Origin: Spirochaetota bacterium
GTDB taxonomy: Bacteria > Spirochaetota > JAGLSM01 > JAKPMW01
NCBI GenBank assembly: GCA_031283155.1
Contig: JAITCI010000020.1
Coordinates: 27,414-91,413, forward strand
DNA length: 64,000 bases
Direction: 5' to 3'
Below are positions 45,857 through 61,705 of this stretch, piece by piece. How positions within the stretch are numbered: position 1 is the stretch's first letter; each line of letters starts with the position of its first letter. Position numbers and translations under genes: made by a program. Under the pieces are notes generated by a model that worked only from the letters and a program-made list of their open reading frames with translations, was not told the origin of the DNA and made no database searches.

Positions 45857-48364
45857 CTAGCCAATAAAGCGTTTTTTCATAAAATGCTCAAGCATGGCCG
45901 GCAGCATGATCACCGAGGTGAGCCAAAGTATCATCATGCCGAGAACCGCAAGCCCGCCGATGGAACGCAAACCCGGATGATTCGCGATCAACATACCCGC
46001 ATACCCCAGCATGGTGGTAAAGGAGCAGAGGAAGAGCGGGACTATCAGCTCGGCCACGGTTTTTTTGGTCTCGCCTTTGTATTCCTTCCAGCGCGTAAAC
46101 ATATGGACGCCGTTGTCCACACCCATACCGAGGAGCGCGGGGATCATGATCACGTTAAACAGGTTCAGATGCATACCCAAAAGCACCATGATTCCGAAAA
46201 TAAACACGAGTCCGCTGATGAGCGGAATCATCACAAACAGCGATTCACGCATAACCCGGAGTTCCAGCCAGACAAGAACGAACACACCCAGGAAGGTTAA
46301 AGCAACAAGCCACACAGCCTCGCCCTTGATGATTTTGACTATCTCGGCGTATACGGGGGTTTCGCCCACCGGCCCCACAACACCGCCAATATCGAGCTTA
46401 TCACGCGCCGCCTGCGATTCCGGGATGAGTCTGTATAATTCCTCGGTGAAACGGATCGCGTTTCCGGAATTTTTCCTTTCCGCTGCGGGTATAACGCCGG
46501 CCAGATACTTATTTTCGCCGTCTTTGGAAAGAAATGAACTGGCGAGCAAATCGGGAAGTTCCTGAATTTTCGGCGGAGATGGATTTTCGCCCATATCCCA
46601 GTCGCGCATTTCGCTTATCCATTTTTTCCGGTCGGGGTTTTCGATTCGCTCAATCCAGGTGCCTTCGCGCATCTCCTCCTGGATATCCCGCAAAAGCAGA
46701 AGCCGCTCCTTCCAGATCAGACTGCCCGGATCCGGGGCATAATCGCGGACGCTGCGCGTCACGCCAACCATGGTGGTATTGGTGGTATACCGGACTACTT
46801 CGCGCCCCTCAACCATATTTGTAACGGGGCTGCTGAGATAGGTTTTCGCGCGCATACGGTTCTCAAAGATATCCAGCGCTTTATCGAGACTTAACACATC
46901 GTCGGCCATAAAAACCGCCCCGGGCGATACGCCGCCGGAGTAGATCTTGCCGCGCGCCGCGCGCGCTTCCGCAAGACCGGGATCGGCGCTTTTGTCAAAC
47001 TGCAGGGTACTGAAACCTGCGTCAAATTTCATGCCTGCGCCGGCAAGTACAACAAAGAACACCATCAACACGAGCGCAATGATCGCGGCGCGCCGCGAAA
47101 GCACAAAGGCTTTATCATTGCGATGATCTTTGGCCCGCAAAAACCCAAAACGAGCAGCAACGACCAGCATCGGCGGCATACACACAAGCATGGAGGCAAG
47201 GATGCTGATGATGACAATGACGGAGATGATCCCGAATTCCGAGAAACCGCGAAAACCCGATATCATGAGAATCGCGAGCGCGAATGCGGTGGTGAAACCC
47301 GAAACAAGCACCGACGGCCCCGTGTTGCGGTAGGCCGCCACAAGCGCCTCCGCGAAGGGCATTTCGCACATCTCCTGCTCCACGCGCTTAACCAGGTGGA
47401 TAGCGTAATCTATACCCATACCCGTGAGAATCACTATGAGAAAAGACGTAATAAGGTTGAGACTCTTAACCGTGATCGGAATAAACGCAAAACCCCATAT
47501 CATACCCACCACAAGCGGAATGAGCACCACCAAAGCCGTTCGCAGGGAGCGAAAACCAATAACTGTCACCAGCAGGATCAGACAGCCGGAAACTATGGTC
47601 GCGATAGCGAGATCCTTGTTGATAAGGTTGAATTCTTCTATTTTGTTGCAATGCGACCCCGCGACGTCCGCCCATACCGAATACTCTTTCCCAATATCCG
47701 CCGCAATATTGGTGAGGCTTGTATACAGATCGGACACCTGCTGGAATTCATCGATCCCATTGGTTGTGCGGATGATGATCCCCAGGTTTTTACCATCAGC
47801 GGAAAAATGATAGGGGGTAAGCGAGGCGAAGTGGCGGACATTTACTTCTATGCCCTCTTCATTGGAGTTGTGTACACTCTCTTCATCGTCCGCTATATCC
47901 CCTGTGCCGCCCGCAAGCAGATTTACGCCGGCGGGAGAAAGTTCCGATTTCCAGCCGAGTATCTTGTCGTAGATCTGCTCCAGATAATCATTCGGAACCA
48001 GCAGATACCGATACTTTCTGAAAAATTCCACTGGCCACTCGTATTCCGCGGTATAGATGCCGGGAAGCGGCTGGATACGCCGCGCCGCCTCGGTAGCAGC
48101 CTGCACCAGGGTATTGCTCTCGTCGGAGTTTATAATCATGGTAAAATACCCGCCGTCTCCGGTGATCGCGGAAAGGGTGCGCGTATTTTTGGAGGCGCGG
48201 CTGTCTGTGGGCAGGAGGCGTACCAGATTCGGATCGATGAATATCTTCTGCACCTCTATAACGGCGGGTATGGTGACGAGCGCGATGATCGCGAGCAGCC
48301 GGTACGGGTGCCGCAATGAATACTGACAAACAGCCAGCATGATTTTTTTCAGAAAAGTATACAT
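45857..48364 (-). CDS. MMPL/RND-superfamily exporter (paralog 1)
   Basis: Two TM bundles separated by large periplasmic loops, with the MMPL signature. 835 aa. Confidence 0.8.
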   Translation of the reverse strand: MYTFLKKIMLAVCQYSLRHPYRLLAIIALVTIPAVIEVQKIFIDPNLVRLLPTDSRASKNTRTLSAITGDGGYFTMIINSDESNTLVQAATEAARRIQPLPGIYTAEYEWPVEFFRKYRYLLVPNDYLEQIYDKILGWKSELSPAGVNLLAGGTGDIADDEESVHNSNEEGIEVNVRHFASLTPYHFSADGKNLGIIIRTTNGIDEFQQVSDLYTSLTNIAADIGKEYSVWADVAGSHCNKIEEFNLINKDLAIATIVSGCLILLVTVIGFRSLRTALVVLIPLVVGMIWGFAFIPITVKSLNLITSFLIVILTGMGIDYAIHLVKRVEQEMCEMPFAEALVAAYRNTGPSVLVSGFTTAFALAILMISGFRGFSEFGIISVIVIISILASMLVCMPPMLVVAARFGFLRAKDHRNDKAFVLSRRAAIIALVLMVFFVVLAGAGMKFDAGFSTLQFDKSADPGLAEARAARGKIYSGGVSPGAVFMADDVLSLDKALDIFENRMRAKTYLSSPVTNMVEGREVVRYTTNTTMVGVTRSVRDYAPDPGSLIWKERLLLLRDIQEEMREGTWIERIENPDRKKWISEMRDWDMGENPSPPKIQELPDLLASSFLSKDGENKYLAGVIPAAERKNSGNAIRFTEELYRLIPESQAARDKLDIGGVVGPVGETPVYAEIVKIIKGEAVWLVALTFLGVFVLVWLELRVMRESLFVMIPLISGLVFIFGIMVLLGMHLNLFNVIMIPALLGMGVDNGVHMFTRWKEYKGETKKTVAELIVPLFLCSFTTMLGYAGMLIANHPGLRSIGGLAVLGMMILWLTSVIMLPAMLEHFMKKRFIG

Positions 48365-48424
48365 TTCGTTTTACCGTTCTTTCCGCAGCAGTATTCTCAG
48401 GAGATTCCTTAATTGAATTACACC

Positions 48425-51007
48425 CTATTTTCGCGCGGCGGCTTCCTCTTCATCCAGAATCTTTACTTCCGCAGCGCTCAAAAATTTTCTTCGCATAAAA
48501 TGTTCCAGCATCGCGGGCAGAATGATGACCGATGTCAGCCAGAGCATCATCATACCCAAAACGGCCAGCGTCCCGATGGAACGCAGCCCCGGATGCGCTG
48601 CGATGATCATGCCCGCATACCCCAGCATGGTGGTAAATGTACACAGAAAGAGCGGGATAAAAAGTTCACTCGCCGCTTTCATCGTATGCCCGTGATACTC
48701 TTTCCAGCGCGTAAACATATGGACGCCGTTATCGACGCCCATGCCCAGAAGCGCGGGAATCATAATGACGTTAAACAGATTCAGATTCATACTGAGAAGC
48801 ACCATAGCGCCAAAGGTAAATACGAGGCCGCTGATAAGCGGAATCATAACAAAAAGGGATTCGCGCACGGTCTTTAACTCCAGCCAAACCAGAATAAAAA
48901 TTCCGATAAAGGTTAAACTCACAACCCACCATATCTCGCCCTTGACGATCCTGACTATCTCGGCAAACACCGGAACCTCGCCCACCGGACCCCACACCCC
49001 GCCGATACCCAGGCGCTCCCGCTCCGCCTGCGATTCGGGAACAAGCTGATATATCTCGTCGGTAAACCGGAGGGAGTGCGCGGCGACCTTGCGGTCAACG
49101 GAGGGAAAGACCGCCACGAGATATCTGGCCGCGCCGTCCTTGGAGAGAAGCGGGGTGCATATAATTTCGGGAAGCTCGCTGAAGGCAGGCGGCAGGGGAT
49201 TCAGTTCCCCGTTCCAGTCGCGCATCTCGCGTATCCAGCGTTTCCGGTCAGGATTTTCGATCCTGTCGATCCAGACGCCTTCGCGCATTTCCTCCTGGAC
49301 GTCCCTAAGAAGAGCGCGGCGCTCGTGCCAGAGTTTGCCATTCGGATCAGGGGTATAATCGCGCAGGCTGCGCGCCCGCTCGATGGTTGTGGTATTGGTT
49401 GTATAGCTTACCACGGGCGCGCCATGAACCATATTTGTTACAGGATCTGTAAGCCAGGTATTTTCGTGGATGCGCTTGTCAAATATTTCCAGGAGGCGAT
49501 CCAGGTTTTCGGTATCGTCCGCCAGAAATATCGCGCCGGGAGAGAAGGTACTCGAATAGACCTTATTGTGCGCCATCCGTGAATCGCGCGCATTCCTCGC
49601 CGCGTCTGTTTCATGCAGCCCGGCAATCGCGCTGCGATCAAATTCCAGATTTCTGAAGCTCGCGTCAAACTGCAGTCCGCTTGCGCCTATAATCAGGCAA
49701 ATGCCCATCAAACCAAGAGCCATCAGCGTCCAGCGGCGCGAAAGGACTATGGCCTTCTCGCTGCGGTGATCGCGCGCGCGGATAAATCCGAAACGATGCG
49801 CGACGACCAGCATCGGCGGCATACACACAACCATGGAAGCCAAAATGCACGCGAGAACCATCGCGCTGATGATCCCAAATTCCGAGAAACCGCGAAAACT
49901 CGAGACCGACAGGATAGAGAGCGCAAACGCTGTAGTGAAACCCGAAACAAGCACCGATGGCCCCGTATTGCGGTAGGCCGACGCGAGCGCCTCCGCGAAG
50001 GGCTTCTCAAACATCTCCTGCTCCACGCGCTTAACCAGGTGGATCGCGTAATCTATGCCCATGCCGGTGAGGATTATGATAAGAAAAGCGGTTATAAGGT
50101 TCAGGCTCCGGATGGTACTCGGGATAAAAGCGAACCCCCAGGCCATCCCCACGATGAGCGGTATGAGTACAACAAGCGCCGTGCGGATAGAGCGAAAACC
50201 CAGCGCTGTCACCAGAAGAATCAGACAGCCGGAGATCAGGGTCGCGTGTCCAATATCGTCATTGATAAGATTGAACTCGTCGGTCTTGTTGCGATGGGAA
50301 CCCGCGATACCTATCTCCACCGGAAATTCTTTTGCAATCCCCGCCGCCACATTCGTAAGCCCTTTGTAGAGATCGACGACCTCCTGAAATTCGTCAATGC
50401 CATTGGATGTACGGATTATGATCCCCAGGTTTTTGCCGTCGGCGGAGAAATGGTAGGGCGAAAGCGAGGCGAATTGGCGGATATCCCCCTCGATGGCCTC
50501 CTCGCCGGGGCTTTGCACATTAACTTCGGTATCGTCCGGATCCGCCGTATCGCCTCCAAGCAGGTTCACGCCTGCCGGAGAGAGTTCCGATTTCCAGCCG
50601 AGTATCTTGTCGTAGATCTGCTCCAGATAGTCATTCGGAATCAGATGGTAGCGGTACTGCCTGAAAAATTCCACCGGCCACTCATACTCTACTGTATAAA
50701 CGCCCTTCAGCGGCCGGATCTGCCGCGCCGCCTCGTCCGCCGCCTGCACCAGGGTATTGCTCTCATCGGAGGTGAGTATCATGGTAAAATACCCGCCGTC
50801 CCCGGTAATAGCGGAAAAAGTGCGGGTATTTTTGGAGGCGCGGCTGTTTGTGGGCAGAAGGCGAACCAGGTTCGGGTCGATAAAGATCTTCTGCACTTCA
50901 AGCACGGCGGGGATGGTAATAAGCGCGATGACAGCCAGTATCCGGTACGGGCATCTCAAGGAATACTGACAGATAGCCAGCATGATTTTTTTGAGAAAAC
51001 TATACAT
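48425..51007 (-). CDS. MMPL/RND-superfamily exporter (paralog 2)
   Basis: 860 aa. Collinear with and highly similar to paralog 1 throughout (e.g. an identical MY[TS]FLKKIML N-terminus). Confidence 0.8.
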   Translation of the reverse strand: MYSFLKKIMLAICQYSLRCPYRILAVIALITIPAVLEVQKIFIDPNLVRLLPTNSRASKNTRTFSAITGDGGYFTMILTSDESNTLVQAADEAARQIRPLKGVYTVEYEWPVEFFRQYRYHLIPNDYLEQIYDKILGWKSELSPAGVNLLGGDTADPDDTEVNVQSPGEEAIEGDIRQFASLSPYHFSADGKNLGIIIRTSNGIDEFQEVVDLYKGLTNVAAGIAKEFPVEIGIAGSHRNKTDEFNLINDDIGHATLISGCLILLVTALGFRSIRTALVVLIPLIVGMAWGFAFIPSTIRSLNLITAFLIIILTGMGIDYAIHLVKRVEQEMFEKPFAEALASAYRNTGPSVLVSGFTTAFALSILSVSSFRGFSEFGIISAMVLACILASMVVCMPPMLVVAHRFGFIRARDHRSEKAIVLSRRWTLMALGLMGICLIIGASGLQFDASFRNLEFDRSAIAGLHETDAARNARDSRMAHNKVYSSTFSPGAIFLADDTENLDRLLEIFDKRIHENTWLTDPVTNMVHGAPVVSYTTNTTTIERARSLRDYTPDPNGKLWHERRALLRDVQEEMREGVWIDRIENPDRKRWIREMRDWNGELNPLPPAFSELPEIICTPLLSKDGAARYLVAVFPSVDRKVAAHSLRFTDEIYQLVPESQAERERLGIGGVWGPVGEVPVFAEIVRIVKGEIWWVVSLTFIGIFILVWLELKTVRESLFVMIPLISGLVFTFGAMVLLSMNLNLFNVIMIPALLGMGVDNGVHMFTRWKEYHGHTMKAASELFIPLFLCTFTTMLGYAGMIIAAHPGLRSIGTLAVLGMMMLWLTSVIILPAMLEHFMRRKFLSAAEVKILDEEEAAARK

Positions 51008-51100
51008 TTCCTAAAGATACAAAATTTACGACGTGCGGGGCGCGCGCGGTACGATACTTACGGCGCTTTTTTGACAGAATATGCGACCGGCGTGCTTTTT

Positions 51101-51724
51101 TCAGTCCGAGATGCGGTACTGCGCGACCGTCTGCTCGACCTGCCGTATCGCCGCCGCCACGCCCTTGGCGCTGACGATCTTTTTGAACTGTCCCTGATAA
51201 TTCCGGATGGTACTTGTCCCGTCCGTGAAATAATTGATGATCACCCAGCGCCCGTCTTTTTGGGTCAGAGTGTAGTCGAGCGCGATCCGCTCCGTGCCGC
51301 CGTTCTTTTTGCTGTATATGGCTGTCGTGCTGACCGTCACATTCGCGCCTGCGGCTTTTTCCCCGCCGTACTCAAAATTATCGGCGTTGTACCGCCCCAT
51401 TTTTTTGACCGAAGAGAGCAGGAGCAGCTCCTCAAATGCCTTTTTGAATGCGGCGCGCTGGGCGGGCGTCGTATCCGCCGGGAAAACCGTCAATACCGCG
51501 TCCGACATGGCTGAAAAATCCGTCGCCGGCTCGATAATGGCTCTGAGCTTTTTTTCGGTGGCGTCGTCCAGCTTGTTGCCCGCATTGGCGTTCAGAACCT
51601 CTTTAACCTTTTCGTTTGAGTCGCGAATCGCATCAAGCGGCGCGCCGGCAAAAAGCACCCCCGCAGAGAGCATGAGTCCAAGAGCCAAAATACCTACAGC
51701 CTTAGTTGAGAGTAACTTTTTCAT
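51101..51724 (-). CDS. MlaC/Ttg2D-like periplasmic lipid-binding protein
   Basis: Signal peptide. ~200 aa, with an MlaC-family pattern. Confidence 0.6.
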   Translation of the reverse strand: MKKLLSTKAVGILALGLMLSAGVLFAGAPLDAIRDSNEKVKEVLNANAGNKLDDATEKKLRAIIEPATDFSAMSDAVLTVFPADTTPAQRAAFKKAFEELLLLSSVKKMGRYNADNFEYGGEKAAGANVTVSTTAIYSKKNGGTERIALDYTLTQKDGRWVIINYFTDGTSTIRNYQGQFKKIVSAKGVAAAIRQVEQTVAQYRISD

Positions 51725-53045
51725 TTTTCATCCACTCCTCGTATTTTTTGATGTCCCCAAGAACAAGCGCCAGACGAGCAAGCGCTATCTGTGTCCTGAG
51801 TTCGCACTGCACCTCTTCAGCTTCGGTTTCGTACTGCATTCTGAAACCGCTAATCACGGTATTCGGCGTGTCCAGACCGAGATCGTAGTTCTCGAGGGCG
51901 AGACGCGCGAATGTTTTTGCAGCGGAGAGCGAATCGCGGATATTCGCAAGATTGGTATACTCCTGCCGCAGACCGGATACCGCCTTTTCCAGGTCAAGCC
52001 GTACCCTTTCTTCCGCATACTTCAGCCCATGCCGCAGCGCATCGAGATCGCTTTTCGCGAGTTCCGCCTCCGTGTCCACCCTCCAGAAGTCCAAACGCCA
52101 CCTTAGCCCTATAAAAGCACCGACACCCTTTGAGTTATAATCGTCACTACTTGGGCGGTTACTTGCGTAGCGCATCCGCAAACCGCCGCCGATGAACAGA
52201 TCGGGCAGGGCGTTTGCTTTTTCGACGGACAGCTTCGCGTCTGCGGCCTGAATCGCCGAGCGCATCTTGCGCAGTTCCGGGCTGCGCTCCGTTACCCGCT
52301 GAAGCAGGCGGGTGATATTGGGCGTCGCATCGTCAAATTCGGGGAGCGGGCTTTCGGCGGCGCGTAACTCGCGCCCCTCGTCCCGCCCCATAGCGATGTT
52401 GAGGGCGCGCATCAGGTTGGTATATTCCCCGGATGTACTGGTATACATTTTATGAACCTGCCAGGAGCGCGCGCGCAGTTCCAGGCGATCCATCTCCGTG
52501 ATGGTACCGTCCTCTTTTTCGATCTCCTCGTCGGCCTTTTCGACAAGCGAATCAAATTTGCCTTTCATATCCTCGGCCACAGCCAGCCCTCTTTGGGCAG
52601 CCGCAAAACCGCGATACAGGCAGATCAGCTCAAAAACGGCCTTATCGCGGGTATCCGCAAAATTATCCTGTTCGTACGCCAGCCCATGCCGCGCGAGTTC
52701 CTCGGCGCTGCCGATCTTGCCAAAGGTTAAAATGGGCTGCACAAAGGAGAGTTCGTTTTGGGTAAACACACCCCAGCCGCTGAGTTCAAAGGGATCGGAG
52801 CCGGGGAGGACGCCTCCGGTAGAGGTGAGATCAAATTTCGTGAGATACTTAAGCTCGTTGACCTTGGTTATCTGCAGGCGCGCCTTCTCCACGCGGGCTT
52901 CCGCCGCCTTAATCCCCGGATTCTCGCGCAGCACCGTGGCGAGTACGTCGCCGAGAAGAATCAGCTCGCCCTCCGCAGCGCCAAGAAAGACCGGAAATAT
53001 AATGACCATAATAATCCGGGAAAAAATGTGTGAAAAAAGGCGCAT
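51702..53045 (-). CDS. TolC-family outer-membrane efflux protein
   Basis: Signal peptide. Two OEP-repeat-like halves. Overlaps the downstream MlaC-like gene by 23 nt. Confidence 0.75.
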   Translation of the reverse strand: MRLFSHIFSRIIMVIIFPVFLGAAEGELILLGDVLATVLRENPGIKAAEARVEKARLQITKVNELKYLTKFDLTSTGGVLPGSDPFELSGWGVFTQNELSFVQPILTFGKIGSAEELARHGLAYEQDNFADTRDKAVFELICLYRGFAAAQRGLAVAEDMKGKFDSLVEKADEEIEKEDGTITEMDRLELRARSWQVHKMYTSTSGEYTNLMRALNIAMGRDEGRELRAAESPLPEFDDATPNITRLLQRVTERSPELRKMRSAIQAADAKLSVEKANALPDLFIGGGLRMRYASNRPSSDDYNSKGVGAFIGLRWRLDFWRVDTEAELAKSDLDALRHGLKYAEERVRLDLEKAVSGLRQEYTNLANIRDSLSAAKTFARLALENYDLGLDTPNTVISGFRMQYETEAEEVQCELRTQIALARLALVLGDIKKYEEWMKNEKVTLN

Positions 53046-53124
53046 CAGCGCACCCCTGCCATTTTATGGGAAATACCGGAAATAAAGACACAATTCCGGT
53101 ACGAATATCAGCTTTCCTGTAAAA

Positions 53125-54957
53125 CTAGTCCGGCGGATTCCGCAAGTCAAGAGGCGTCCTTGACCAATTTTCAGGTTCATATACAGCAGCGATGGCATTC
53201 GTCCAGACTTCGGTATACCCGCCCTCCTGTATCAATTCCATTGTTAAGGCATGAAGAGTGGGGCGCGGCGCCGCCCATTGGGTTTGCAGCCACTGCGCGG
53301 CATAGGGATCGGGGAGCGGCCAGTTCCGCGCTGCGGTAATTGCGCGGACGTAAATAATCAGGGGATATTCGCGGTGTACCCCGCGCGCCCAGGAAAAAGC
53401 GTTTGTCAATCTGGAATGCGAAAAAAGCGCATGGGGCATGGAAAACCCCAGATACGGGATACACTCTGTAACATAAGTCAGGAGAGGCGCGAAGGGTATA
53501 AGCACAGCCTTTCCTTTCAGATCGTAGCGCGCGAGGTAATCGGTGAGTTCGTTTAGTGCGTCCGCGCGCGCCTTGTTTGTATGTATACCGCGAAGATTTG
53601 GGTGATGGAGGCTGTGTACGAGCTTCAGCCTGTTTGCCTGATCCCTGTCGGTTTGGGTAAAGGCATACGCCGCTGTAAAAACCCATGCCGGAACAAGTAT
53701 TGACCAGAAGAGCGCCCGGGCATAAACGGAAAATCTGCCAAAATAAAATGCCTGCGCATTTCCCGCGCGAAAAACAGTGCCCAGCGCAAGCGGCAAAGCA
53801 AGCCAAAGACCAAATTTGGCGTTCCACCAAACCTGATCTGAACCCAGAGGAAGGAGGAAGGCTATTCCAAACACGACAAGACAGATGTGCGCCCATCTGT
53901 TTCGCAGAAATTGCCCGGGAAGCGAAAAAAGAATAATGCCCGCGAGAAAGAGCGCAAACGCAAATATGTACAGCGGAAAAGATATAAGCTGCTTGCCATT
54001 TCCCAGTTCCTGTTCGATGAGGTACATGGGCAGATGAACGAGAAAGAAAGCCGCAATACATGGCAGCAGGCGCGCCCGCCAGTCATCGCGCCTGGACAGC
54101 AGACGCGAGAAAAGCGTATAAAAAGCGGCGAGCGCAAGAATTGTTCCCGCAACCTTCGCGGTGTCCGAGAGGAAACGTTTTGCAAGGTATGAGAATTTAT
54201 GATATGGACCCATATCGCCAAAAAGAGTAGCCTTAATTCCGTTCAGGAAAATTTCTTCCTGCCCAAGCAGAATAACTATCACCCCCGTAAACACACATCC
54301 GGCAATGAACCCCAAAAAAGACCACACGAAAGAGCGCAGCATGGCACCCGTGCCGAGATGAGACCGGATATACGCAAGGGGTATGAGAAAAAGCAGGATA
54401 CCGGCAATACTCGGTATACGCGCAAAAACAGTGAGACTCATGCACAGACCGGCAAAAAAGAAATTCTCCGCGCGTCCATTCCGGAAAGTCCGAAGCAGAA
54501 AAAATGCGGTACAGACATACAGAAACGCAGGGAAATTATTATAGTTGATAAGCTGCATGGTTGGAGTGATCGCGAGCACGGCAAGGGCAAGGCCAAAGAG
54601 GAGCGGACGCCGCGCAACAAAAAAAGGGCGCAGGCTTTTGTACGCGATCCATGCGGTAGCCCATGCTATAAAAGCGAAAAGTAACTTAAAAGAAAAAACC
54701 CCCAGCCGGCCAAAGAGCGCGTGCCAAACCCCGCCGAAGATCTCTGTGAGATATATGGAAGCAAGGGGGAACACCCCCCCATTTTCACCGGAAAGGTTAA
54801 GGGCAGGGTCAAAACTGAGGGCGTCGCGGTATTTAACAGCCCAAAATCCAAAATCGCCCATATCAAGACCCTGAAAGATCGTCAGCAGCGGGTACACCAG
54901 TATAATGATTATAAAAACCGAGTCCGGACAAAAGAAACGGCGGTGTACTCCAGACAT
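53125..54957 (-). CDS. large polytopic membrane protein, possibly a GT-C-type glycosyltransferase or polymerase
   Basis: >10 predicted TM helices across ~610 aa. Sits in a glycan-biosynthesis neighbourhood. The start was set at an internal Met (the ORF extends to 55062). Confidence 0.5.
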   Translation of the reverse strand: MSGVHRRFFCPDSVFIIIILVYPLLTIFQGLDMGDFGFWAVKYRDALSFDPALNLSGENGGVFPLASIYLTEIFGGVWHALFGRLGVFSFKLLFAFIAWATAWIAYKSLRPFFVARRPLLFGLALAVLAITPTMQLINYNNFPAFLYVCTAFFLLRTFRNGRAENFFFAGLCMSLTVFARIPSIAGILLFLIPLAYIRSHLGTGAMLRSFVWSFLGFIAGCVFTGVIVILLGQEEIFLNGIKATLFGDMGPYHKFSYLAKRFLSDTAKVAGTILALAAFYTLFSRLLSRRDDWRARLLPCIAAFFLVHLPMYLIEQELGNGKQLISFPLYIFAFALFLAGIILFSLPGQFLRNRWAHICLVVFGIAFLLPLGSDQVWWNAKFGLWLALPLALGTVFRAGNAQAFYFGRFSVYARALFWSILVPAWVFTAAYAFTQTDRDQANRLKLVHSLHHPNLRGIHTNKARADALNELTDYLARYDLKGKAVLIPFAPLLTYVTECIPYLGFSMPHALFSHSRLTNAFSWARGVHREYPLIIYVRAITAARNWPLPDPYAAQWLQTQWAAPRPTLHALTMELIQEGGYTEVWTNAIAAVYEPENWSRTPLDLRNPPD

Positions 54958-55119
54958 ATCCTGCCTCCTGCTCAAAGCCAAACCCTTCCTAAAAATACAA
55001 AAGTGTATATCCAGAGTGAAAACGATTGCCGCAGCCCGGCAAAAACGGAAGCGGAGCACCATTTTTGTAGACGCGAAAAAAAGGCCGCGTTACACTCAAA
55101 CAACAGAGAAGCGGAGTGC

Positions 55120-56919
55120 ATGATGGAGCGCAACTATACACTGATTGCGGTAATTACCGGCGCGGCGTTTTTATTCCTGTGGATTTTACCCTATCTGGTT
55201 TTGGGCGAAGACGCGCATATAACGCTCCACGACAATCTGGATTCTGAAATTATTTTTAACCAACTGGGCGCGAAATATTTTTTTGACTTAAGCGGTACGA
55301 TCCCCGAATTTATCAATCTGGATGCGCGCGCGCTCAACACCTTTTCGACGTTTCAGCTTTTGCTGTACGCATTCCTGCCGCCATTTCAGGCATATATATT
55401 AAATGAATGTATCGTCAGATTGGCAGCGTATGCGGGGATGTATTTGCTTTTGAGCCTGATTTGTACACGTCATTTCCGCGAAGAGCGCCCGCCGTCAGGC
55501 AATCCCTGGATGCTTGTGACGCTTGCCGTTTCCGTGCTTTTTGCGTGGCTTCCGTTTTACAGTGTGTATGGTTTAACGGTCGCCGGAATGCCAATGCTGG
55601 CATGGGCGTTTTATAATGTTTTTTTGCATGGCTGCGGGAGGGATCCGAAGACTGTCTCTTCCCGTAAATTAAAATTTTGCTTTTTGTGTATCGCGTTTTT
55701 TGGTTTTGGGAGCGCTCTGATCTTAAGCGGCTGGTTTATCCTTCTCATTTTGTCCGGGTTGTGCGCCTATTTCCTGTGCAAGCAGCAATTCCGCAAAAAA
55801 CAGATATATTTTTATCTGGCCGCAGCGCTCCTGCTGGCGGTGTATGCCGCGTGTAACCTAAAACTGATTATGCTCATGCTTTCGGGTTATCAATCGCACC
55901 GCGAGATTTGGGAAACTCTGGAGACAAAAAATTTCAGCGGGATGATACTCTGGTTTTTTGCTGTTTTCGGAATAGGGCGGCCGCACGCGGGTGGGCATTA
56001 TACCTTCATTGTATTGATATGCGCGGCGGCGTTTTTTTATGGATGGTTTAAGGACAAGAAAAACAAAATATGGCAATGGCTCTCATGGGTTGTATTGCTC
56101 AACGTAATTATTGCGGCGGCGAATGCGCTGCTTGCGGCCACCATCGTCGGCAAAATCATAATCGCGTCAGGCCTGGGGCGTTTTCGCGCGGCAAGGCTGT
56201 TCTTCATGATGCCGTTTACATGGTATACGGCGGGCGCTTTGGCTCTGGCGTTTATATGGGAAAAAATTGCGGGAAACGGAAACGCGGCCAGGTTAAAGCT
56301 GGCCCGGGCTGTAACAATTTGCGTATGCGCGCTGGCGTTTGTTCTTGTGTCCGCCATCCCGTGGCCGCACAGCCATGTTGCGGGGTTAACCAATTACGCG
56401 GTTATGCTGGGCGCTGCTGCCGGCGGCCCGTCGTGGAGAGAATTTTATGACGTAAACCTTTTCAAAACCATAGATGACGCAATCGGCCGCGACAAAACAA
56501 CATACCGCACAGGGTCGATTGGCCTGCCCCCCGCAATAGCGATATATAACGGATTTTACACCGTGGACGCGTTCTCGCAAAATTACAGTCTGGAATACTG
56601 GCGTACGTTTCGCGGCGTTATCGCGGGGGAACTTGCGCGCAATCCTGCCATGGACGCCAATTTTTACTGGGGGAATCAGTGCTATTTATTCGCAAGCGAA
56701 ATTTATGAACACCGCTCCTGGAATCTGGGGATGTACAATAAAAATTCCACAGCGGTGATTACAACTCTGGATTATGATATACAGGCGCTTAGAAACGTCC
56801 TCGGCTGCGAATACATTTTTTCCGCCGTACCCATCCTGACGCCGCCCGCCGAACTGGAATATGTGGATTATTTTGAAGGCGCTTATCTGGGGATTTATCT
56901 CTACAAAGTAATTATCTGA
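55120..56919 (+). CDS. large polytopic membrane protein (hypothetical, ~600 aa)
   Basis: Many TM helices and a C-terminal soluble region. The start was set at MMERNYT, because the upstream part of the ORF overlaps the divergent gene. Confidence 0.55.
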   Translation: MMERNYTLIAVITGAAFLFLWILPYLVLGEDAHITLHDNLDSEIIFNQLGAKYFFDLSGTIPEFINLDARALNTFSTFQLLLYAFLPPFQAYILNECIVRLAAYAGMYLLLSLICTRHFREERPPSGNPWMLVTLAVSVLFAWLPFYSVYGLTVAGMPMLAWAFYNVFLHGCGRDPKTVSSRKLKFCFLCIAFFGFGSALILSGWFILLILSGLCAYFLCKQQFRKKQIYFYLAAALLLAVYAACNLKLIMLMLSGYQSHREIWETLETKNFSGMILWFFAVFGIGRPHAGGHYTFIVLICAAAFFYGWFKDKKNKIWQWLSWVVLLNVIIAAANALLAATIVGKIIIASGLGRFRAARLFFMMPFTWYTAGALALAFIWEKIAGNGNAARLKLARAVTICVCALAFVLVSAIPWPHSHVAGLTNYAVMLGAAAGGPSWREFYDVNLFKTIDDAIGRDKTTYRTGSIGLPPAIAIYNGFYTVDAFSQNYSLEYWRTFRGVIAGELARNPAMDANFYWGNQCYLFASEIYEHRSWNLGMYNKNSTAVITTLDYDIQALRNVLGCEYIFSAVPILTPPAELEYVDYFEGAYLGIYLYKVII

Positions 56920-56937
56920 ATTTCGCCGGTATACTAT

Positions 56938-57564
56938 TTATTCGTAATTGTATTTATAATTGTCATAGTCATTTCTGATTTCATCCTCAGAAACGGCTTC
57001 CTTTCTTTTACAAACCATTAAGGAATCCACACCATCGAGTATTTGTATATATTTTTTTACAATATGGTAATACGGCCTGTTCCAGAAATCGTGAATGATA
57101 ATTACTGTATTTTCACTTGTTTCCAGCAGCGTCTTTAAGCAGCACGCCGCGCGAAACCGTCCGTCTATCAATACGGCGTCGGCCAGCCTTATTTCTGCGT
57201 ATTGCTCAAAAGGTTTTTGGGAGTAATTCAAAAATCTTTCCCTGTTATCCCCTTTGGCAGTTATAACCGGAGTTCCCCATTTACCGGTTTTGCCAATATC
57301 CGCATGAATCAGATGAAGCTGTCCGGATAGTTCGCTCTTTAATATGATTTCGTATTTTTGTTTCATCTTTTCTATCCAGCCTTTGTCCGATTCCACTGAA
57401 TATACTTTTCTGCCGCTATTGGTCAGCGCGGCGATTGTCGAACCGCCGGATCCGAATTCCAGATATATTTTTGCGCCGCAGATATATTTTTTGAATAATT
57501 CCCGCTCATTTTCAGTCATCGCCCACGTAAAATTTTTGTTCCGTGCCTTGCAGAATACAGACAT
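56938..57564 (-). CDS. class I SAM-dependent methyltransferase
   Basis: Motif I LEFGSGGST. Noticeably low-GC relative to its neighbours. Confidence 0.6.
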   Translation of the reverse strand: MSVFCKARNKNFTWAMTENERELFKKYICGAKIYLEFGSGGSTIAALTNSGRKVYSVESDKGWIEKMKQKYEIILKSELSGQLHLIHADIGKTGKWGTPVITAKGDNRERFLNYSQKPFEQYAEIRLADAVLIDGRFRAACCLKTLLETSENTVIIIHDFWNRPYYHIVKKYIQILDGVDSLMVCKRKEAVSEDEIRNDYDNYKYNYE

Positions 57565-57751
57565 ATCCGATCCCTCGCTTGCGTTTTCCGCAGCACGGGA
57601 CAGTATCTTCTGTATCAGCTTTTATATAGAGATATATCCTCCGCGCGCGGATTATTTTCCCAATACCGCTCATTGAGCGTCCAGTGCGATCCCAATTCAA
57701 AATCATACGCGCGGGGCTCAAAACGCCCAAAGCCGGCGTCCGAATAATTGG

Positions 57752-58594
57752 TTAGCTCGCCAAAATAGATAGTACCCCCCCCCCCCCCGTATCATGATCA
57801 TACAAATCCACGCGAATATGATCAAAATCCTGCGCAAGTTCTTCCGCAAGCCGGAGCATCTTTTTCAGATTTTTTGGGCGGGGGCGAAGCTCGCCGCATG
57901 GACATTCGAGCGTGAGATCGAGCGGATTCCAGCCGCAATCGTACATATTTATTGTATGCTCCGCAAAGCGATCAACATCCACCCGGATCATGCGGCAGCG
58001 TCCATGGATCATAAAAAACTTATAGTCGCAGGGCGGCTTTCCGTCCTTGCCGGCGAGAAGCTCCTCAACGAGAATGCGCCGGGGGATACCCTGATATGCC
58101 CACTGGTACTTAAAAACGCCATACGAATGGCGCAGCCAGCTGCGGCAGAGCGCAATGAGTTTCTTTGGGTCTTCCCGATCCTTATCATGAACGAGATAAT
58201 TCATCCCGCAGGAATGATTGGCCTTCAGCGCGAAAGAACGCGGCAGCCGCCCAAACGGGATGGTCTCCGGGGAATCCGTGGCATACAAAAGCGGAATGAG
58301 GATCTCCGCAGCGCGTTCCTTCCCAAGAAGCGTCTCGATATACTTTCGTACCCGCAGCTTATCGGTGACAACCGGAAGGAGCGGATTACGGTCAAAATGC
58401 TTTTTCCAGATAATCTTCTCGTTATAACTCTCCGGATTCTCCAGCTTAAGCGGATAGCCGTGCGCGCGCTGAAACTGCGCCCTCTCTATGGCTTTGCCGG
58501 CGAAAAAATCAAGCGCGTGAAACGCCGCCAGCCTGATCAGATACGCCGCGCCCGAATCCCACACCCGTTTCCATACAGTCCTTTTGTGTACCAT
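57752..58594 (-). CDS. TupA-like ATP-grasp amidoligase, C-terminally truncated in this frame by a homopolymeric tract (phase-OFF, or an assembly error)
   Basis: The YNEKI(I/L)WKK ... FALKANHSCG pattern matches the ATPgrasp_TupA family. A G14 run in the coding strand is followed 8 codons later by a stop. The +1 frame continues with IYFGELT...FEPRAYDFELG for ~50 more codons. Confidence 0.6.
   Translation of the reverse strand: MVHKRTVWKRVWDSGAAYLIRLAAFHALDFFAGKAIERAQFQRAHGYPLKLENPESYNEKIIWKKHFDRNPLLPVVTDKLRVRKYIETLLGKERAAEILIPLLYATDSPETIPFGRLPRSFALKANHSCGMNYLVHDKDREDPKKLIALCRSWLRHSYGVFKYQWAYQGIPRRILVEELLAGKDGKPPCDYKFFMIHGRCRMIRVDVDRFAEHTINMYDCGWNPLDLTLECPCGELRPRPKNLKKMLRLAEELAQDFDHIRVDLYDHDTGGGGVLSILAS
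57775..57788. repeat. homopolymeric C14 tract (G14 on the coding strand) inside the ATP-grasp gene
   Basis: Direct count in the sequence: 14 consecutive C on the + strand. Confidence 0.9.
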
Positions 58595-58598
58595 AAGG

Positions 58599-60197
58599 TT
58601 ATTCTTTCCTTTTTTTCCACAGCATAAGCACCCGCGCGTCGCCCTCCTCAAACCCCAGACATTTGAGGATACCAAAATATACGCCCAGAATGAGGATGAT
58701 CGCGGGCAGCTTAAGCCAAAAATACCCCAAGTCCGATATATCGGCAAAAAGCAAAAGCGCGCCGGAAACAAGAGCCGCGATATACGGCTTATACACCTCC
58801 CGCCGCCTGAGGCGCACCCCAAGCAAAAACCGCGCTTCCATAATCTGAATCAGGCGGATACTCACCGCCGCGAGTACCGCAGCAAGCGCCGCCCCAAAGA
58901 GTCCATAGACGGGAATGAAGAGCGCCGCGAACAGGAAGCTCAGCCCCGCAACCGTAACCGAGTTCGCGAGGCTCCAGGCGGATTTCCCGAGGGCGGTAAT
59001 GACATTCCCCGCCAGGCCAATGCCGCAGGAGAGAAGCGGAACAAGGGTGAGCAGGATCATAAAGCCCGTCGCGCCCATATCACCCAGATACTCCAATCGC
59101 AATACCGAAATGAGCGCGCCGGGGAGCAGTGCGTTCATCGGCAGGGCAAAAGGAACCCCAAAGGCAGGGTGAAAAAGCTGCAGGAGTTCATGCCTGAAAA
59201 AAATCACGAGAAAGCCCAGCGGGAACGCGAGGAGCATCGTCCAGCGGCTGACCTTGTTATAGGACACATTCATCTCATCCGGGCGCTGTTCGCCGTACAG
59301 GCGCGCGATAACGGGCGTATACGCGCCGGAGAACGCGAGCCGCACCTGTTCTATATTATGCACAATCTGCGCGGCAATCCCGTAATAGCCTATCAGCGCC
59401 GGCTGCACCCCAAAAAAGCCAAGCATCATCACGTCAAACCCCGCGATCATATCGGTAAAAGTGAGATTAAGGCTTTGCGGAAGCACAAAAACAAGGAGCG
59501 GGCGCATGAAACGAAAGCGGCGAAACGCAAGCAAGAGCCTTTTCATGGAAAAGGATCTGCAAAAAATGACAAGCGCAGCCGCAAACATAACGGCGCTTGT
59601 GGCTGTATAGCCGTACCCAAGTCCATCCACGCCGAAATCCAGCGCGGCAAAGAGCAGCGCGCAAACAAATAAGCCAAAGGGACGGATACACCCCTGCAAA
59701 AGCGCGTCCCACTTCATCTCCGCGTGCGCTTTCGTCGCTGAAACCAAAAGCACCGCAGCCGCCTGCAGCGGCAGACCGGGCGCCATCAGGCGCAGCAGCG
59801 ACTGAATGCGGCCTTCACTGTACATGGGAAGAGCGCCGGACGCGCCCAGAAGGAGAGCGAGGCAGAGCAAAAGCCCAACGCCCGCGCACAGGACAATGCT
59901 ATTGGCAAGCGCCTGATAGGCGTTCCGTTCGTCCCTGCGCGCCAGATACCTCGCGGCGAAAATCATAACGCCGTCATTGAGCCCGCCCACAGCCAGCTTC
60001 TTCAGCATCTCAATAAAGACAAACACAAGAAGGTACACACCCAGGGCGTCAGCGCCGTACATCCGCCCAACGACAATAAAAAATATGGGATTAAAGGCCT
60101 TGCCCAGCACCCCCAGGAGGTTGTACACAAGACCGCGCGTGACTTCGTGATCGTAATTTTGTTTCGTCAATCGCGCGCCCAGCCTTTTATAAAACAC
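58599..60197 (-). CDS. Wzx-type oligosaccharide flippase (polysaccharide biosynthesis protein, MOP superfamily)
   Basis: ~14 TM helices across 532 aa, with a Wzx/polysacc_synt family pattern. Its stop is 5 nt before the ATP-grasp start. Confidence 0.8.
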   Translation of the reverse strand: MFYKRLGARLTKQNYDHEVTRGLVYNLLGVLGKAFNPIFFIVVGRMYGADALGVYLLVFVFIEMLKKLAVGGLNDGVMIFAARYLARRDERNAYQALANSIVLCAGVGLLLCLALLLGASGALPMYSEGRIQSLLRLMAPGLPLQAAAVLLVSATKAHAEMKWDALLQGCIRPFGLFVCALLFAALDFGVDGLGYGYTATSAVMFAAALVIFCRSFSMKRLLLAFRRFRFMRPLLVFVLPQSLNLTFTDMIAGFDVMMLGFFGVQPALIGYYGIAAQIVHNIEQVRLAFSGAYTPVIARLYGEQRPDEMNVSYNKVSRWTMLLAFPLGFLVIFFRHELLQLFHPAFGVPFALPMNALLPGALISVLRLEYLGDMGATGFMILLTLVPLLSCGIGLAGNVITALGKSAWSLANSVTVAGLSFLFAALFIPVYGLFGAALAAVLAAVSIRLIQIMEARFLLGVRLRRREVYKPYIAALVSGALLLFADISDLGYFWLKLPAIILILGVYFGILKCLGFEEGDARVLMLWKKRKE

Positions 60198-60324
60198 TCC
60201 ATGTCCCGGAAATAAATATACTCGCTTATCCTGAGATCTTTCATGTTACGGCGGCCGCACCATACACATTTTTACAAACCTGTTCCGACGGGAGCGCCGG
60301 CTGTTTCGGCTCCCCAAAACCGCC

Positions 60325-60409
60325 TGCCGTCTACGCGGGGCGCTTACCTCTTCTGAATCGTTGCCCCGCGTCGAGCCGACATCCTGTCTACGCGGGGCGC
60401 TTACCTCCT
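60325..60409. repeat. two copies of a ~23-bp direct repeat (TGTCTACGCGGGGCGCTTACCTC) separated by 34 bp, with an inverted partial copy between them
   Basis: Seen directly in the sequence. The second copy overlaps the last codons and stop of the CDP-alcohol transferase gene. Confidence 0.7.
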
Positions 60410-61705
60410 GTAAGCGAACCACGCAAGATATACAACCAGCACCCAAATAACGCCCGCCATGAACCACATAAACGCGCCGGCGAGGTTCAGCATTAAAATC
60501 ACCATCGCGGCGAGGGCGAAAAAATCATGCCGGAACAGGAACGCCATTTTGGACACGCAGCGGTCAAGCAAAGCGATACCGCCTGTTTTCTGCGCGGCTT
60601 TCTCGACGTCGTTGATAATCTGAAAGGTATGCTCGCTTCCTGTGCGGCGGATGTAGCGCAGCATGACAAAAAACATACAGGCCAGTCCGAGTAATACCCC
60701 CCCGCCAAGAACCAGAAAGGTTTCGCTGCCCAGTTCCGGGAGCATATATGCAGCCGTTTCCTCCCGCGGAGAATTGCAGAGTCCAAGAGGGAGCGCGATA
60801 AAAAACAGGAAGTAGCCCAGTTGGTCGCAAAAGGTATCAAAGCGCGCGCCCGCCTGCGACATCCGCCATGTAAGCCTGGCCACCTCGCCGTCGCTGCCGT
60901 CGATGATCGAGGTAAGCTGATACAGAATGCCGCCCCAAAAAAAATTCCAATACCCGCCCAGCGCAATCAGCGCGGCGGAGAGCAGCGTCAGCAGGAGATT
61001 GACGCCGCTGATGAAATTGGGCGAAAAGCCCAAAACCATACACACGCGCGAAATACGAATCGATATGGGGCGGTTCAGATACCGCGACACAACGCCGTCG
61101 CTGGCTTTGCGCACCGACGCAAGGAGCGCGCGCCTTGCCCGCTTATAGGCCAATTTGTTTCGCACGTCCACAGCGTAGCCGTCTGTCATCGGCACGTACC
61201 CGGAGACGCGCGAATCAAAAATTAAGGTAAGCCCGGTATCCGGCGAACGGATAAACGCCTCAAGCAATTTTGGAAAAATATGCGCGCGGCAGAGCGCAAG
61301 CCCCGTCCATACCGCCCCTGCCTTTTGCCCATCCGAAACATTGCCCGCCATATCCACAATAAGACAGCAACTGCTCTCCGCGAGATCTATGCCGGGCAGA
61401 CGCGCGAGAACGCTCTCCTTATAAACAGCCGTATCGGAAAGGAGGAGAAAGGTATCGGTGAAGCGCTCCGCCTTCAGATCGGCGGCGTCGCGGCACGTCA
61501 CTGCGCAGCCCTGCCGCGCGAGTACCCGGTTTGCCGCCAAAAACGCCTGCATCTGCTCTGCGCCCTCGTCGCACACCACAAAAAAATCACGCACACCGGC
61601 GCGCGCTGCGGCAATAATGCTCCGCGCGATCAGCGGGTGCCCGCACAGCCTCCGCACGCGCATCGTGCCGCTATGCGAAAAGATGACCGCCTGCGAAATT
61701 ACCAT
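60401..61705 (-). CDS. nucleotidyltransferase-like domain fused to a CDP-alcohol phosphatidyltransferase
   Basis: C-terminal CDP-OH transferase motif DG(x)2AR(x)8G(x)3D(x)3D (DGSDGEVARLTWRMSQAGARFDTFCDQLGYF) plus a TM region. The N-terminal ~200 aa have a degenerate NTP-transferase-like fold. Confidence 0.7.
   Translation of the reverse strand: MVISQAVIFSHSGTMRVRRLCGHPLIARSIIAAARAGVRDFFVVCDEGAEQMQAFLAANRVLARQGCAVTCRDAADLKAERFTDTFLLLSDTAVYKESVLARLPGIDLAESSCCLIVDMAGNVSDGQKAGAVWTGLALCRAHIFPKLLEAFIRSPDTGLTLIFDSRVSGYVPMTDGYAVDVRNKLAYKRARRALLASVRKASDGVVSRYLNRPISIRISRVCMVLGFSPNFISGVNLLLTLLSAALIALGGYWNFFWGGILYQLTSIIDGSDGEVARLTWRMSQAGARFDTFCDQLGYFLFFIALPLGLCNSPREETAAYMLPELGSETFLVLGGGVLLGLACMFFVMLRYIRRTGSEHTFQIINDVEKAAQKTGGIALLDRCVSKMAFLFRHDFFALAAMVILMLNLAGAFMWFMAGVIWVLVVYLAWFAYRR

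Follow-up and report, generated by a model that had tools for sequence, protein, structure and literature searches.

Does a run of 14 guanines that breaks the reading frame of an ATP-grasp gene serve as a genetic switch, or does it merely record an assembly error or the loss of a dispensable gene? The question is raised by a 64-kb stretch of DNA (hereafter, the window) from a metagenome-assembled genome (MAG) of an uncultured member of the Spirochaetota. The gene in question lies on the minus strand, where the sequence reads ...GATCATGATAC-G14-TACTATCTATTTTGGCGAG... (in its wider flanks, GATTTGTATGATCATGATAC-G14-TACTATCTATTTTGGCGAGC), corresponding to an uninterrupted C14 on the plus strand. 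The reading that we find probable is that the tract is a hypermutable homopolymer switching a putative amidoligase on and off within an operon that also encodes a flippase-type and a methyltransferase-fold protein. The coordinates of the features discussed below are collected in Table 1.

Table 1. Coordinates of the G14 tract, the gene that carries it and the co-oriented neighbors
Feature	Coordinates	Strand	Basis or remark
Nucleotidyltransferase-like N-terminus fused to CDP-alcohol phosphatidyltransferase	60401..61705	-	Pfam CDP-OH_P_transf
MATE/Wzx-like (MOP superfamily) flippase-type membrane protein, upstream, co-oriented	58599..60197	-	Pfam MatE 4e-12
TupA-like ATP-grasp (amidoligase-family) gene, full ON extent	57615..58594	-	Assembled allele is frameshifted by the G tract
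Uninterrupted G14 homopolymer	57775..57788	-	Codes for a Gly run at the tip of a beta-hairpin (residues about 270-273)
52 C-terminal codons, open only with G12/15/18	57618..57774	-	YFGELT (E280), G288, P294, G302, W305
Premature stop TAA, G14 frame	57752..57754	-	7 codons past the tract
ON-frame stop TGA	57615..57617	-	Translation of tract-length variants
Class I SAM-methyltransferase-fold gene, 208 aa, downstream, co-oriented	56938..57564	-	AF2 and Foldseek

The G14 tract and the reading frames of the gene

The G14 tract is the only G or C run longer than 7 nt in the window. The second-longest runs are two of 7 nt, and no run has a length between 7 and 14. Runs of C number 152 at length 4, 34 at length 5, 4 at length 6 and 2 at length 7, and the counts of both G and C runs drop about four- to five-fold with each extra base. 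Markov models of order 1 to 5 fitted to the window, which has a G+C content of 54%, put the expected number of 14-nt runs at 1e-7 to 1e-3, indicating that the tract is a real feature beyond chance. Its composition is also unusual at the codon level. All of its codons are GGG, a codon that makes up 25% of the Gly codons in the window, and in this it is unlike the six other Gly runs of the window (3-4 residues), in which the codons are mixed. The tract is located 82% along the open reading frame (ORF), whereas the most economical switches sit near the 5' end. Neither Tandem Repeats Finder nor a scan for G/C runs of at least 8 nt revealed another candidate switch repeat in the 64-kb window, and within it there is no sign of a wider set of phase-variable genes.

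The two C7 runs, which read as G7 on the strand of their genes, are found at 54774-54780 and 60697-60703, one in the gene for a 645-aa membrane protein and one in the CDP-alcohol phosphatidyltransferase gene. Thus, the three longest G/C runs of the window all fall within one 6-kb envelope locus, for which the rough chance is about 0.03. G7 only just reaches the shortest repeat lengths that serve as cut-offs for phase variation (PMC6321876).

The protein product depends on the length of the tract. With G14, the ORF extends from the ATG at 58594 to the stop at 57752 and encodes 280 aa ending in ...DTGGGGVLSILAS (C-terminal reading of the present frame, ...VDLYDHDTGGGGVLSILAS). With G12, G15 or G18 the product has 325, 326 or 327 aa, respectively, and ends in ...ISLYKS* at 57615, while G13 and G16 give 291 and 292 aa with an unrelated 18-residue tail. 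The 52 codons past the tract contain no stops and keep all conserved family residues, and the 268 codons before the tract are likewise intact. The absence of decay in the downstream codons suggests that the frameshift is either very recent or reversible. An initial annotation of this DNA had pointed out the tract at 57775-57788 and had predicted that the restored frame would end at about 57615, short of the methyltransferase gene. On recheck, all of its coordinates and translations were correct, and the restored frame does stop at 57615, leaving a gap of 50 nt to the ATG of the next gene at 57564.

The exact 280-aa product has been deposited at NCBI as MDR2733716.1 ('MAG: hypothetical protein LBC99_03600 [Spirochaetota bacterium]'); it is encoded on a contig of 93,292 bp that is also present at JGI. 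As regards annotation, this 'hypothetical protein' is a frameshifted member of the amidoligase family.

Domain, fold and the site of the insertion

The repaired 326-aa protein matches Pfam family PF14305 (ATPgrasp_TupA) over profile positions 1-238 of 241 (8.5e-34, 117.6 bits), and the truncated 280-aa protein matches positions 1-208 of 241 with 93.6 bits. Both scores are far above the gathering threshold of the family (25 bits), so both proteins are members of it, just as the initial annotation had assigned the gene to TupA-like ATP-grasp enzymes. That annotation had further considered the +1 version to be the true protein and had proposed aligning its translation to the PF14305 profile. In this alignment, the +1 frame gains 24 bits and 30 profile positions over the truncated form. 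The extension of the match from position 208 to 238 identifies the +1 frame as the true continuation of the family sequence, and it restores the near-invariant pattern YFGELT..Y..G..P..G..W. A complete PF14305 domain with the C-terminal YFGE(L)T...P...G segment is therefore present only in the frame of G12, G15 and G18.

Conservation at the level of individual residues leads to the same picture. In an alignment with 119 homologs, the invariant residues include R261 and D263 ahead of the tract and E280 and G288 beyond it, and a further set of residues past the tract (Y277, F278, G279, L281, T282, Y284, P294, G302 and W305) is conserved in at least 90% of sequences. All of these post-tract residues are present in the +1 frame. 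The G14 product lacks E280 and G288 together with the rest of the conserved C-terminus, in agreement with the earlier claim that the assembled allele is OFF.

Sequence searches of PDB, whether with the protein alone or with a profile, yielded chance matches only, and thus no solved relative was detected by sequence; nor did any NCBIfam model match the amidoligase. An AF2 model of the repaired protein, built on the alignment of homologs, had a pLDDT of 95.1 and a pTM of 0.92. When this model was compared with PDB using Foldseek, the matches were D-Ala-D-Ala ligases (Ddl), ArgX/LysX, RimK and PsnB (probability 1.00, E about 1e-5). As modeled, the protein has the three-dimensional fold of ATP-grasp enzymes. 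D263 and E280 are acidic residues on two adjacent strands, which we take to be the counterparts of the Mg-ATP binders of ATP-grasp enzymes. Their invariance, their place in the predicted fold and general knowledge of these enzymes suggest that they act as metal ligands, whereas a local alignment to a segment of E. coli DdlB was uninformative on the equivalence of either residue. Because E280 would be an Mg-ATP ligand, the truncated protein, devoid of this presumed catalytic residue, of a core strand and of the C-terminal helices, should be inactive.

The same model places the tract within the structure. The two strands, residues 259-268 (HIRVDLYDHD) and 274-282 (GTIYFGELT), form a hairpin in which the tract-encoded TGGGG is the turn; the hairpin joins the strand carrying R261 and D263 to that carrying E280, and the tract is at its tip. 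The segment from Y265 to Y277 has 6 residues in 118 of the 119 homologs and 7 in the remaining one, compared with 11 here. At the DNA level, the gene is longer here by exactly 14 bases than its two nearest counterparts, both from Spirochaetota MAGs (L002 and L003; 55-56% protein identity), which have CAGGGACGGGTG at the position of the tract. These additional nucleotides, in a loop whose length is otherwise constant, mark the tract as a pure, lineage-specific insertion. Judging by the model, the tip of the hairpin should tolerate additional Gly residues.

Two other ideas about the tract were considered and rejected. Insertion of a mobile element does not apply, as the G run is the only extra DNA. 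Nor is poly-G a habit of the whole family: among 78 homologous loci of other species (1.08 Mb), the homologous gene itself has no G/C run of at least 9 nt, and the three such runs that occur in these loci are all outside it.

Envelope-glycan context

The amidoligase gene occupies the third position in a row of four genes with the same orientation (Table 1). The product of the first of these scored 100.7 bits against the NCBIfam model for archaeal bifunctional IPCT/DIPPS, far under the cut-off of 580; it may provide an activated head group or a substituent for the same envelope product. The stop codon of the flippase-type gene is located 4 nt ahead of the ATP-grasp ATG, and the homolog of this gene in a related locus from another metagenome (L082) also matches Polysacc_synt.

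For the product of the fourth gene, there was no match in Pfam or NCBIfam despite about 580 homologs, including ones from Brachyspira. However, its AF2 model (pLDDT 93.4) has as the best Foldseek match the methyltransferase-like structure 3cvo (TM 0.79/0.84), followed by the polysaccharide (sugar) O-methyltransferase MeT1 and then by COMT-like enzymes. The methyltransferase that had been annotated downstream of the tract can thus be specified, on the strength of the model, as a protein with a class I methyltransferase fold. Its closest homologs (57-74% identity, 230-250 aa), one of which comes from a MAG named as Treponema sp., carry at the N-terminus a hydrophobic stretch of about 25 residues, which is missing here according to the alignment. 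Upstream of the ATG, the frame runs into a stop at 57622-57624.

In a consensus scan of the 56.8-61.9 kb region, counts of promoter-like sites were near the shuffled expectation and terminator-like sites were about 2.5 sd above it. The scan revealed no convincing promoter or terminator between the amidoligase and methyltransferase genes.

Several further genes accompany the operon. A full-length DUF6044 membrane protein (369.6 bits) is encoded divergently next to it, at 55093-56919 on the plus strand. Beside the operon there is also a gene for a polytopic protein of 645 aa (53125-55062, minus strand), for which no family match was found. Both the DUF6044 gene and the 645-aa gene recur near the flippase in relatives. 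Further away, the region 45857-53045 (minus strand) contains two tandem genes for MMPL/HpnN-like RND transporters, followed by MlaC/HpnM-like and TolC-like genes. This set looks like a lipid-export module beside the glycan locus, and the pairing of MMPL with MlaC is kept in L082.

The comparison with L082 is informative about the amidoligase itself. The related locus contains the MMPL, MlaC, methyltransferase-fold, flippase and DUF6044 genes, but the amidoligase is absent, from which we conclude that the amidoligase is an accessory decoration gene. Collectively, the gene content indicates an envelope glycan or glycolipid pathway.

From the DUF6044 gene through the methyltransferase-fold gene into the 3' end of the amidoligase gene (55000-58000), the G+C content is 0.46-0.49, compared with the window mean of 0.54; this segment may be variable or may have been acquired laterally.

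A second spirochaete-like contig (L080/L081) is found in the sequencing run SRR14710906. On it, a paralog or ortholog of the methyltransferase-fold protein (68-71% identity) is encoded beside a gene of more than 2,696 aa, which implies that two or more related lineages were present in the sample. The source of the window is probably identical with JGI sample 3300042617.

A candidate phase-variation switch and its alternatives

TupA-like ATP-grasp amidoligases couple an amine to a carboxylate on a cell-surface polysaccharide at the expense of ATP, the carboxylate typically being that of a uronic acid. Family membership together with the flippase and methyltransferase neighbors suggests that the enzyme described here would likewise form an ATP-dependent amide bond on a polysaccharide carboxylate. 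We propose that slipped-strand mispairing during replication of the 14-nt G run inserted at the hairpin tip would toggle the reading frame. Lengths of G12, G15 and G18 would be ON, producing the full-length enzyme with small differences in the length of its Gly loop, and lengths of G13, G14, G16 and G17 would be OFF, producing a truncated protein without E280 and the C-terminal helices. The assembled G14, presumably the majority allele, would then be OFF and could return to ON by gaining one G or losing two. If tract length varies in the population in this manner, cells of one lineage would differ in an amide-linked decoration of their glycan. There may also be an effect on the next gene. With the switch OFF, translation would end 188 nt short of the methyltransferase start, compared with 50 nt when it is ON, and the longer untranslated gap could change the expression of that gene; polarity on the downstream methyltransferase gene in the OFF state is thus possible.

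How well does the locus agree with the usual properties of contingency loci? Such loci have uninterrupted poly-G/C tracts of 7-8 nt or more, and here the tract is a pure G14. One of the three frames should be intact, and indeed G14 leads to a stop after 7 codons, while G15 and G12 give the full-length protein. Tract lengths at such loci differ within a population or between isolates; here, G14 is the sole allele in the collections searched, and a scan of JGI metagenome contigs with the flank pattern TATGATCATGATAC-N4-30-TACTATCTATTTTGG, which does match the window itself, gave 0 matches in a collection that is without the source contig and therefore yielded no information on alleles. Contingency loci usually, though not obligatorily, come as a set, and in this respect the tract stands alone in the 64-kb window. 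The single allele, the isolation of the tract, its late position in the ORF and the lack of G/C runs of at least 9 nt in the homologous genes of the 78 loci count against a switch. The absence of the amidoligase from L082 is what would be expected of a variable decoration gene, and we count it in favor of the switch.

The most serious alternative is that the tract length is wrong: the true sequence would be G15 (or G12), the gene would be intact, and the reads or the consensus would be one base short. Errors are common when long G runs pass through library PCR and sequencing, the window comes from a metagenome-assembled genome, and one extra base suffices to obtain a perfect full-length member of the family. 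On the other hand, the Logan assembly of SRR14710906 contains a 9,794-bp contig that is identical to window positions 50600-60393, G14 included. Two different assemblers therefore agree on G14 across an otherwise identical 9.8-kb stretch. Since Logan is built from 31-mers, individual reads must cover the tract together with unique flanks on either side, which argues against an assembler glitch. For the same reasons, that is, unique flanks on both sides within single 31-mers and an independent k-mer assembly, the poly-G artifact of two-color chemistry (dark cycles) was rejected. Both assemblies were drawn from the same reads, however, and their agreement is silent on a systematic bias of one missing base in the reads themselves. 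Consequently, the assembly error that the initial annotation had named as its alternative is weakened by the second G14 assembly but is still live, the same reads underlying both. The rest of the window has no signs of frameshifts: long ORFs tile it, and every neighboring ORF that was searched matched its family cleanly, which indicates that the data are not generally indel-prone. Moreover, a tract of G15 would be hypermutable too, so that an error of this kind would alter the assembled state and leave the mechanism in place. Overall, we regard a length error as unlikely, though well within consideration.

Alternatively, the tract may have arisen by an accidental expansion of G that inactivated a dispensable amidoligase, leaving a pseudogene with no adaptive switching. 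The accessory nature of the gene, missing as it is from L082, fits this explanation, and so does the occurrence of a single long tract in 64 kb. The absence of an ON allele from public data also fits it: a protein search of 5.8 billion clusters found no allele of ON or any other length; the nearest relative there is 55% identical, and the organism is represented once in this collection, with G14 as the sole allele. The state of the gene argues the other way. Not only are the 268 codons upstream of the tract intact, but the 52 codons downstream of it remain stop-free with every conserved family residue in place. In addition, the tract is both pure and long, whereas tracts that are not under selection tend to shorten or to acquire interruptions. 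We therefore consider a dead gene improbable.

A third alternative, in which G14 is fixed and RNA-polymerase slippage or ribosomal frameshifting provides full-length enzyme at a low level, is in keeping with the perfectly preserved ON frame and with the fact that long homopolymers promote transcriptional slippage in bacteria, but slippage at the DNA level would be expected to dominate at G14, and we give this alternative very little credence.

Returning to the phase-variation switch, several characterized systems offer a comparison. Among them are the poly-G/C loci of Campylobacter. In this genus, poly-G/C tracts of 7-8 nt or more are candidates for phase variation, and many of them are in genes for the modification of capsule, LOS and flagellar glycans (PMC6321876). 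The loci of Campylobacter jejuni in the PhasomeIt catalog (PMC6321876) resemble the one described here in that a pure poly-G tract is located inside the gene of a surface-glycan enzyme, a frameshift leads to a premature stop, and a change by one repeat restores the ORF. They differ in number, with many tracts per genome compared with one in 64 kb here. The spirochaete tract, for its part, belongs to an uncultured Spirochaetota MAG, is late in the ORF and would switch as judged from sequence.

The late position has a precedent in Helicobacter canadensis, for which 'C-terminal phase variation' has been described: its rfbB has a G14 tract, with G11-G17 observed in reads (Snyder et al. 2010, PMC2823697). 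There, too, G14 is found far into a gene of a polysaccharide pathway, and only the C-terminus changes, the rest being translated in every frame. In contrast to that case, the 52 residues lost here include a core strand of the modeled structure and an acidic residue that is invariant in the family, so a loss of activity, rather than an altered tail, would be expected.

In Neisseria gonorrhoeae, a poly-G tract in pgtA, encoding a pilin galactosyltransferase, switches the sugar decoration of pilin (PMC2193922). The similarity is that poly-G occurs in the gene of a glycan-decorating enzyme, in some lineages, and is absent from others. However, PgtA is a glycosyltransferase and not an ATP-grasp amidoligase, and the switching of pgtA has been demonstrated experimentally.

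Within the same phylum, 76% of the tested poly-G tracts of at least 8 nt in Treponema pallidum vary in length (PMC7864442). Such G tracts, in tprL and elsewhere, are length-variable within strains (PMC7864442). The best-studied of these tracts act at promoters. The tprL tract differs from the spirochaete G14 in that it is in a promoter and modulates transcription, whereas G14 is intragenic and would act at the level of translation.

As for the enzyme, TupA-like proteins are generally encoded in surface-polysaccharide loci (PMC13419641). The C-terminal domain of Cj1438 (Cj1438C), from the HS:2 capsule locus of C. jejuni, attaches serinol-P or ethanolamine-P to capsular glucuronate by amidation of its C6 carboxylate (PMC11800379). 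It is likened to the protein described here by family, as both are TupA-like ATP-grasp members of PF14305. The difference is in architecture: Cj1438C is part of a three-domain protein, whereas the spirochaete enzyme is a stand-alone protein of 326 aa.

The mechanism of switching itself is textbook, and with this tract the spirochaete locus would join the known poly-G contingency loci. A more elaborate version can be envisaged, in which the ON forms G12, G15 and G18 are unequal in activity or in the choice of amine, resulting in a graded switch of the envelope glycan in an apparently non-pathogenic spirochaete lineage. The ON lengths might differ because the tract codes for the hairpin that links the strands with the invariant acidic residues, but we view such grading as a long shot.

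If the tract does vary in length, slipped-strand phase variation of surface glycans, previously known from well-studied pathogens such as Campylobacter, Helicobacter, Neisseria, Haemophilus and T. pallidum, would extend to an uncultured lineage of Spirochaetota. The class of enzyme would be new for this kind of switching as well, as we found no report in the literature of a phase-variable TupA-like amidoligase. In that case, the gene would also be relevant to interactions with phages or a host in the community from which the organism came.
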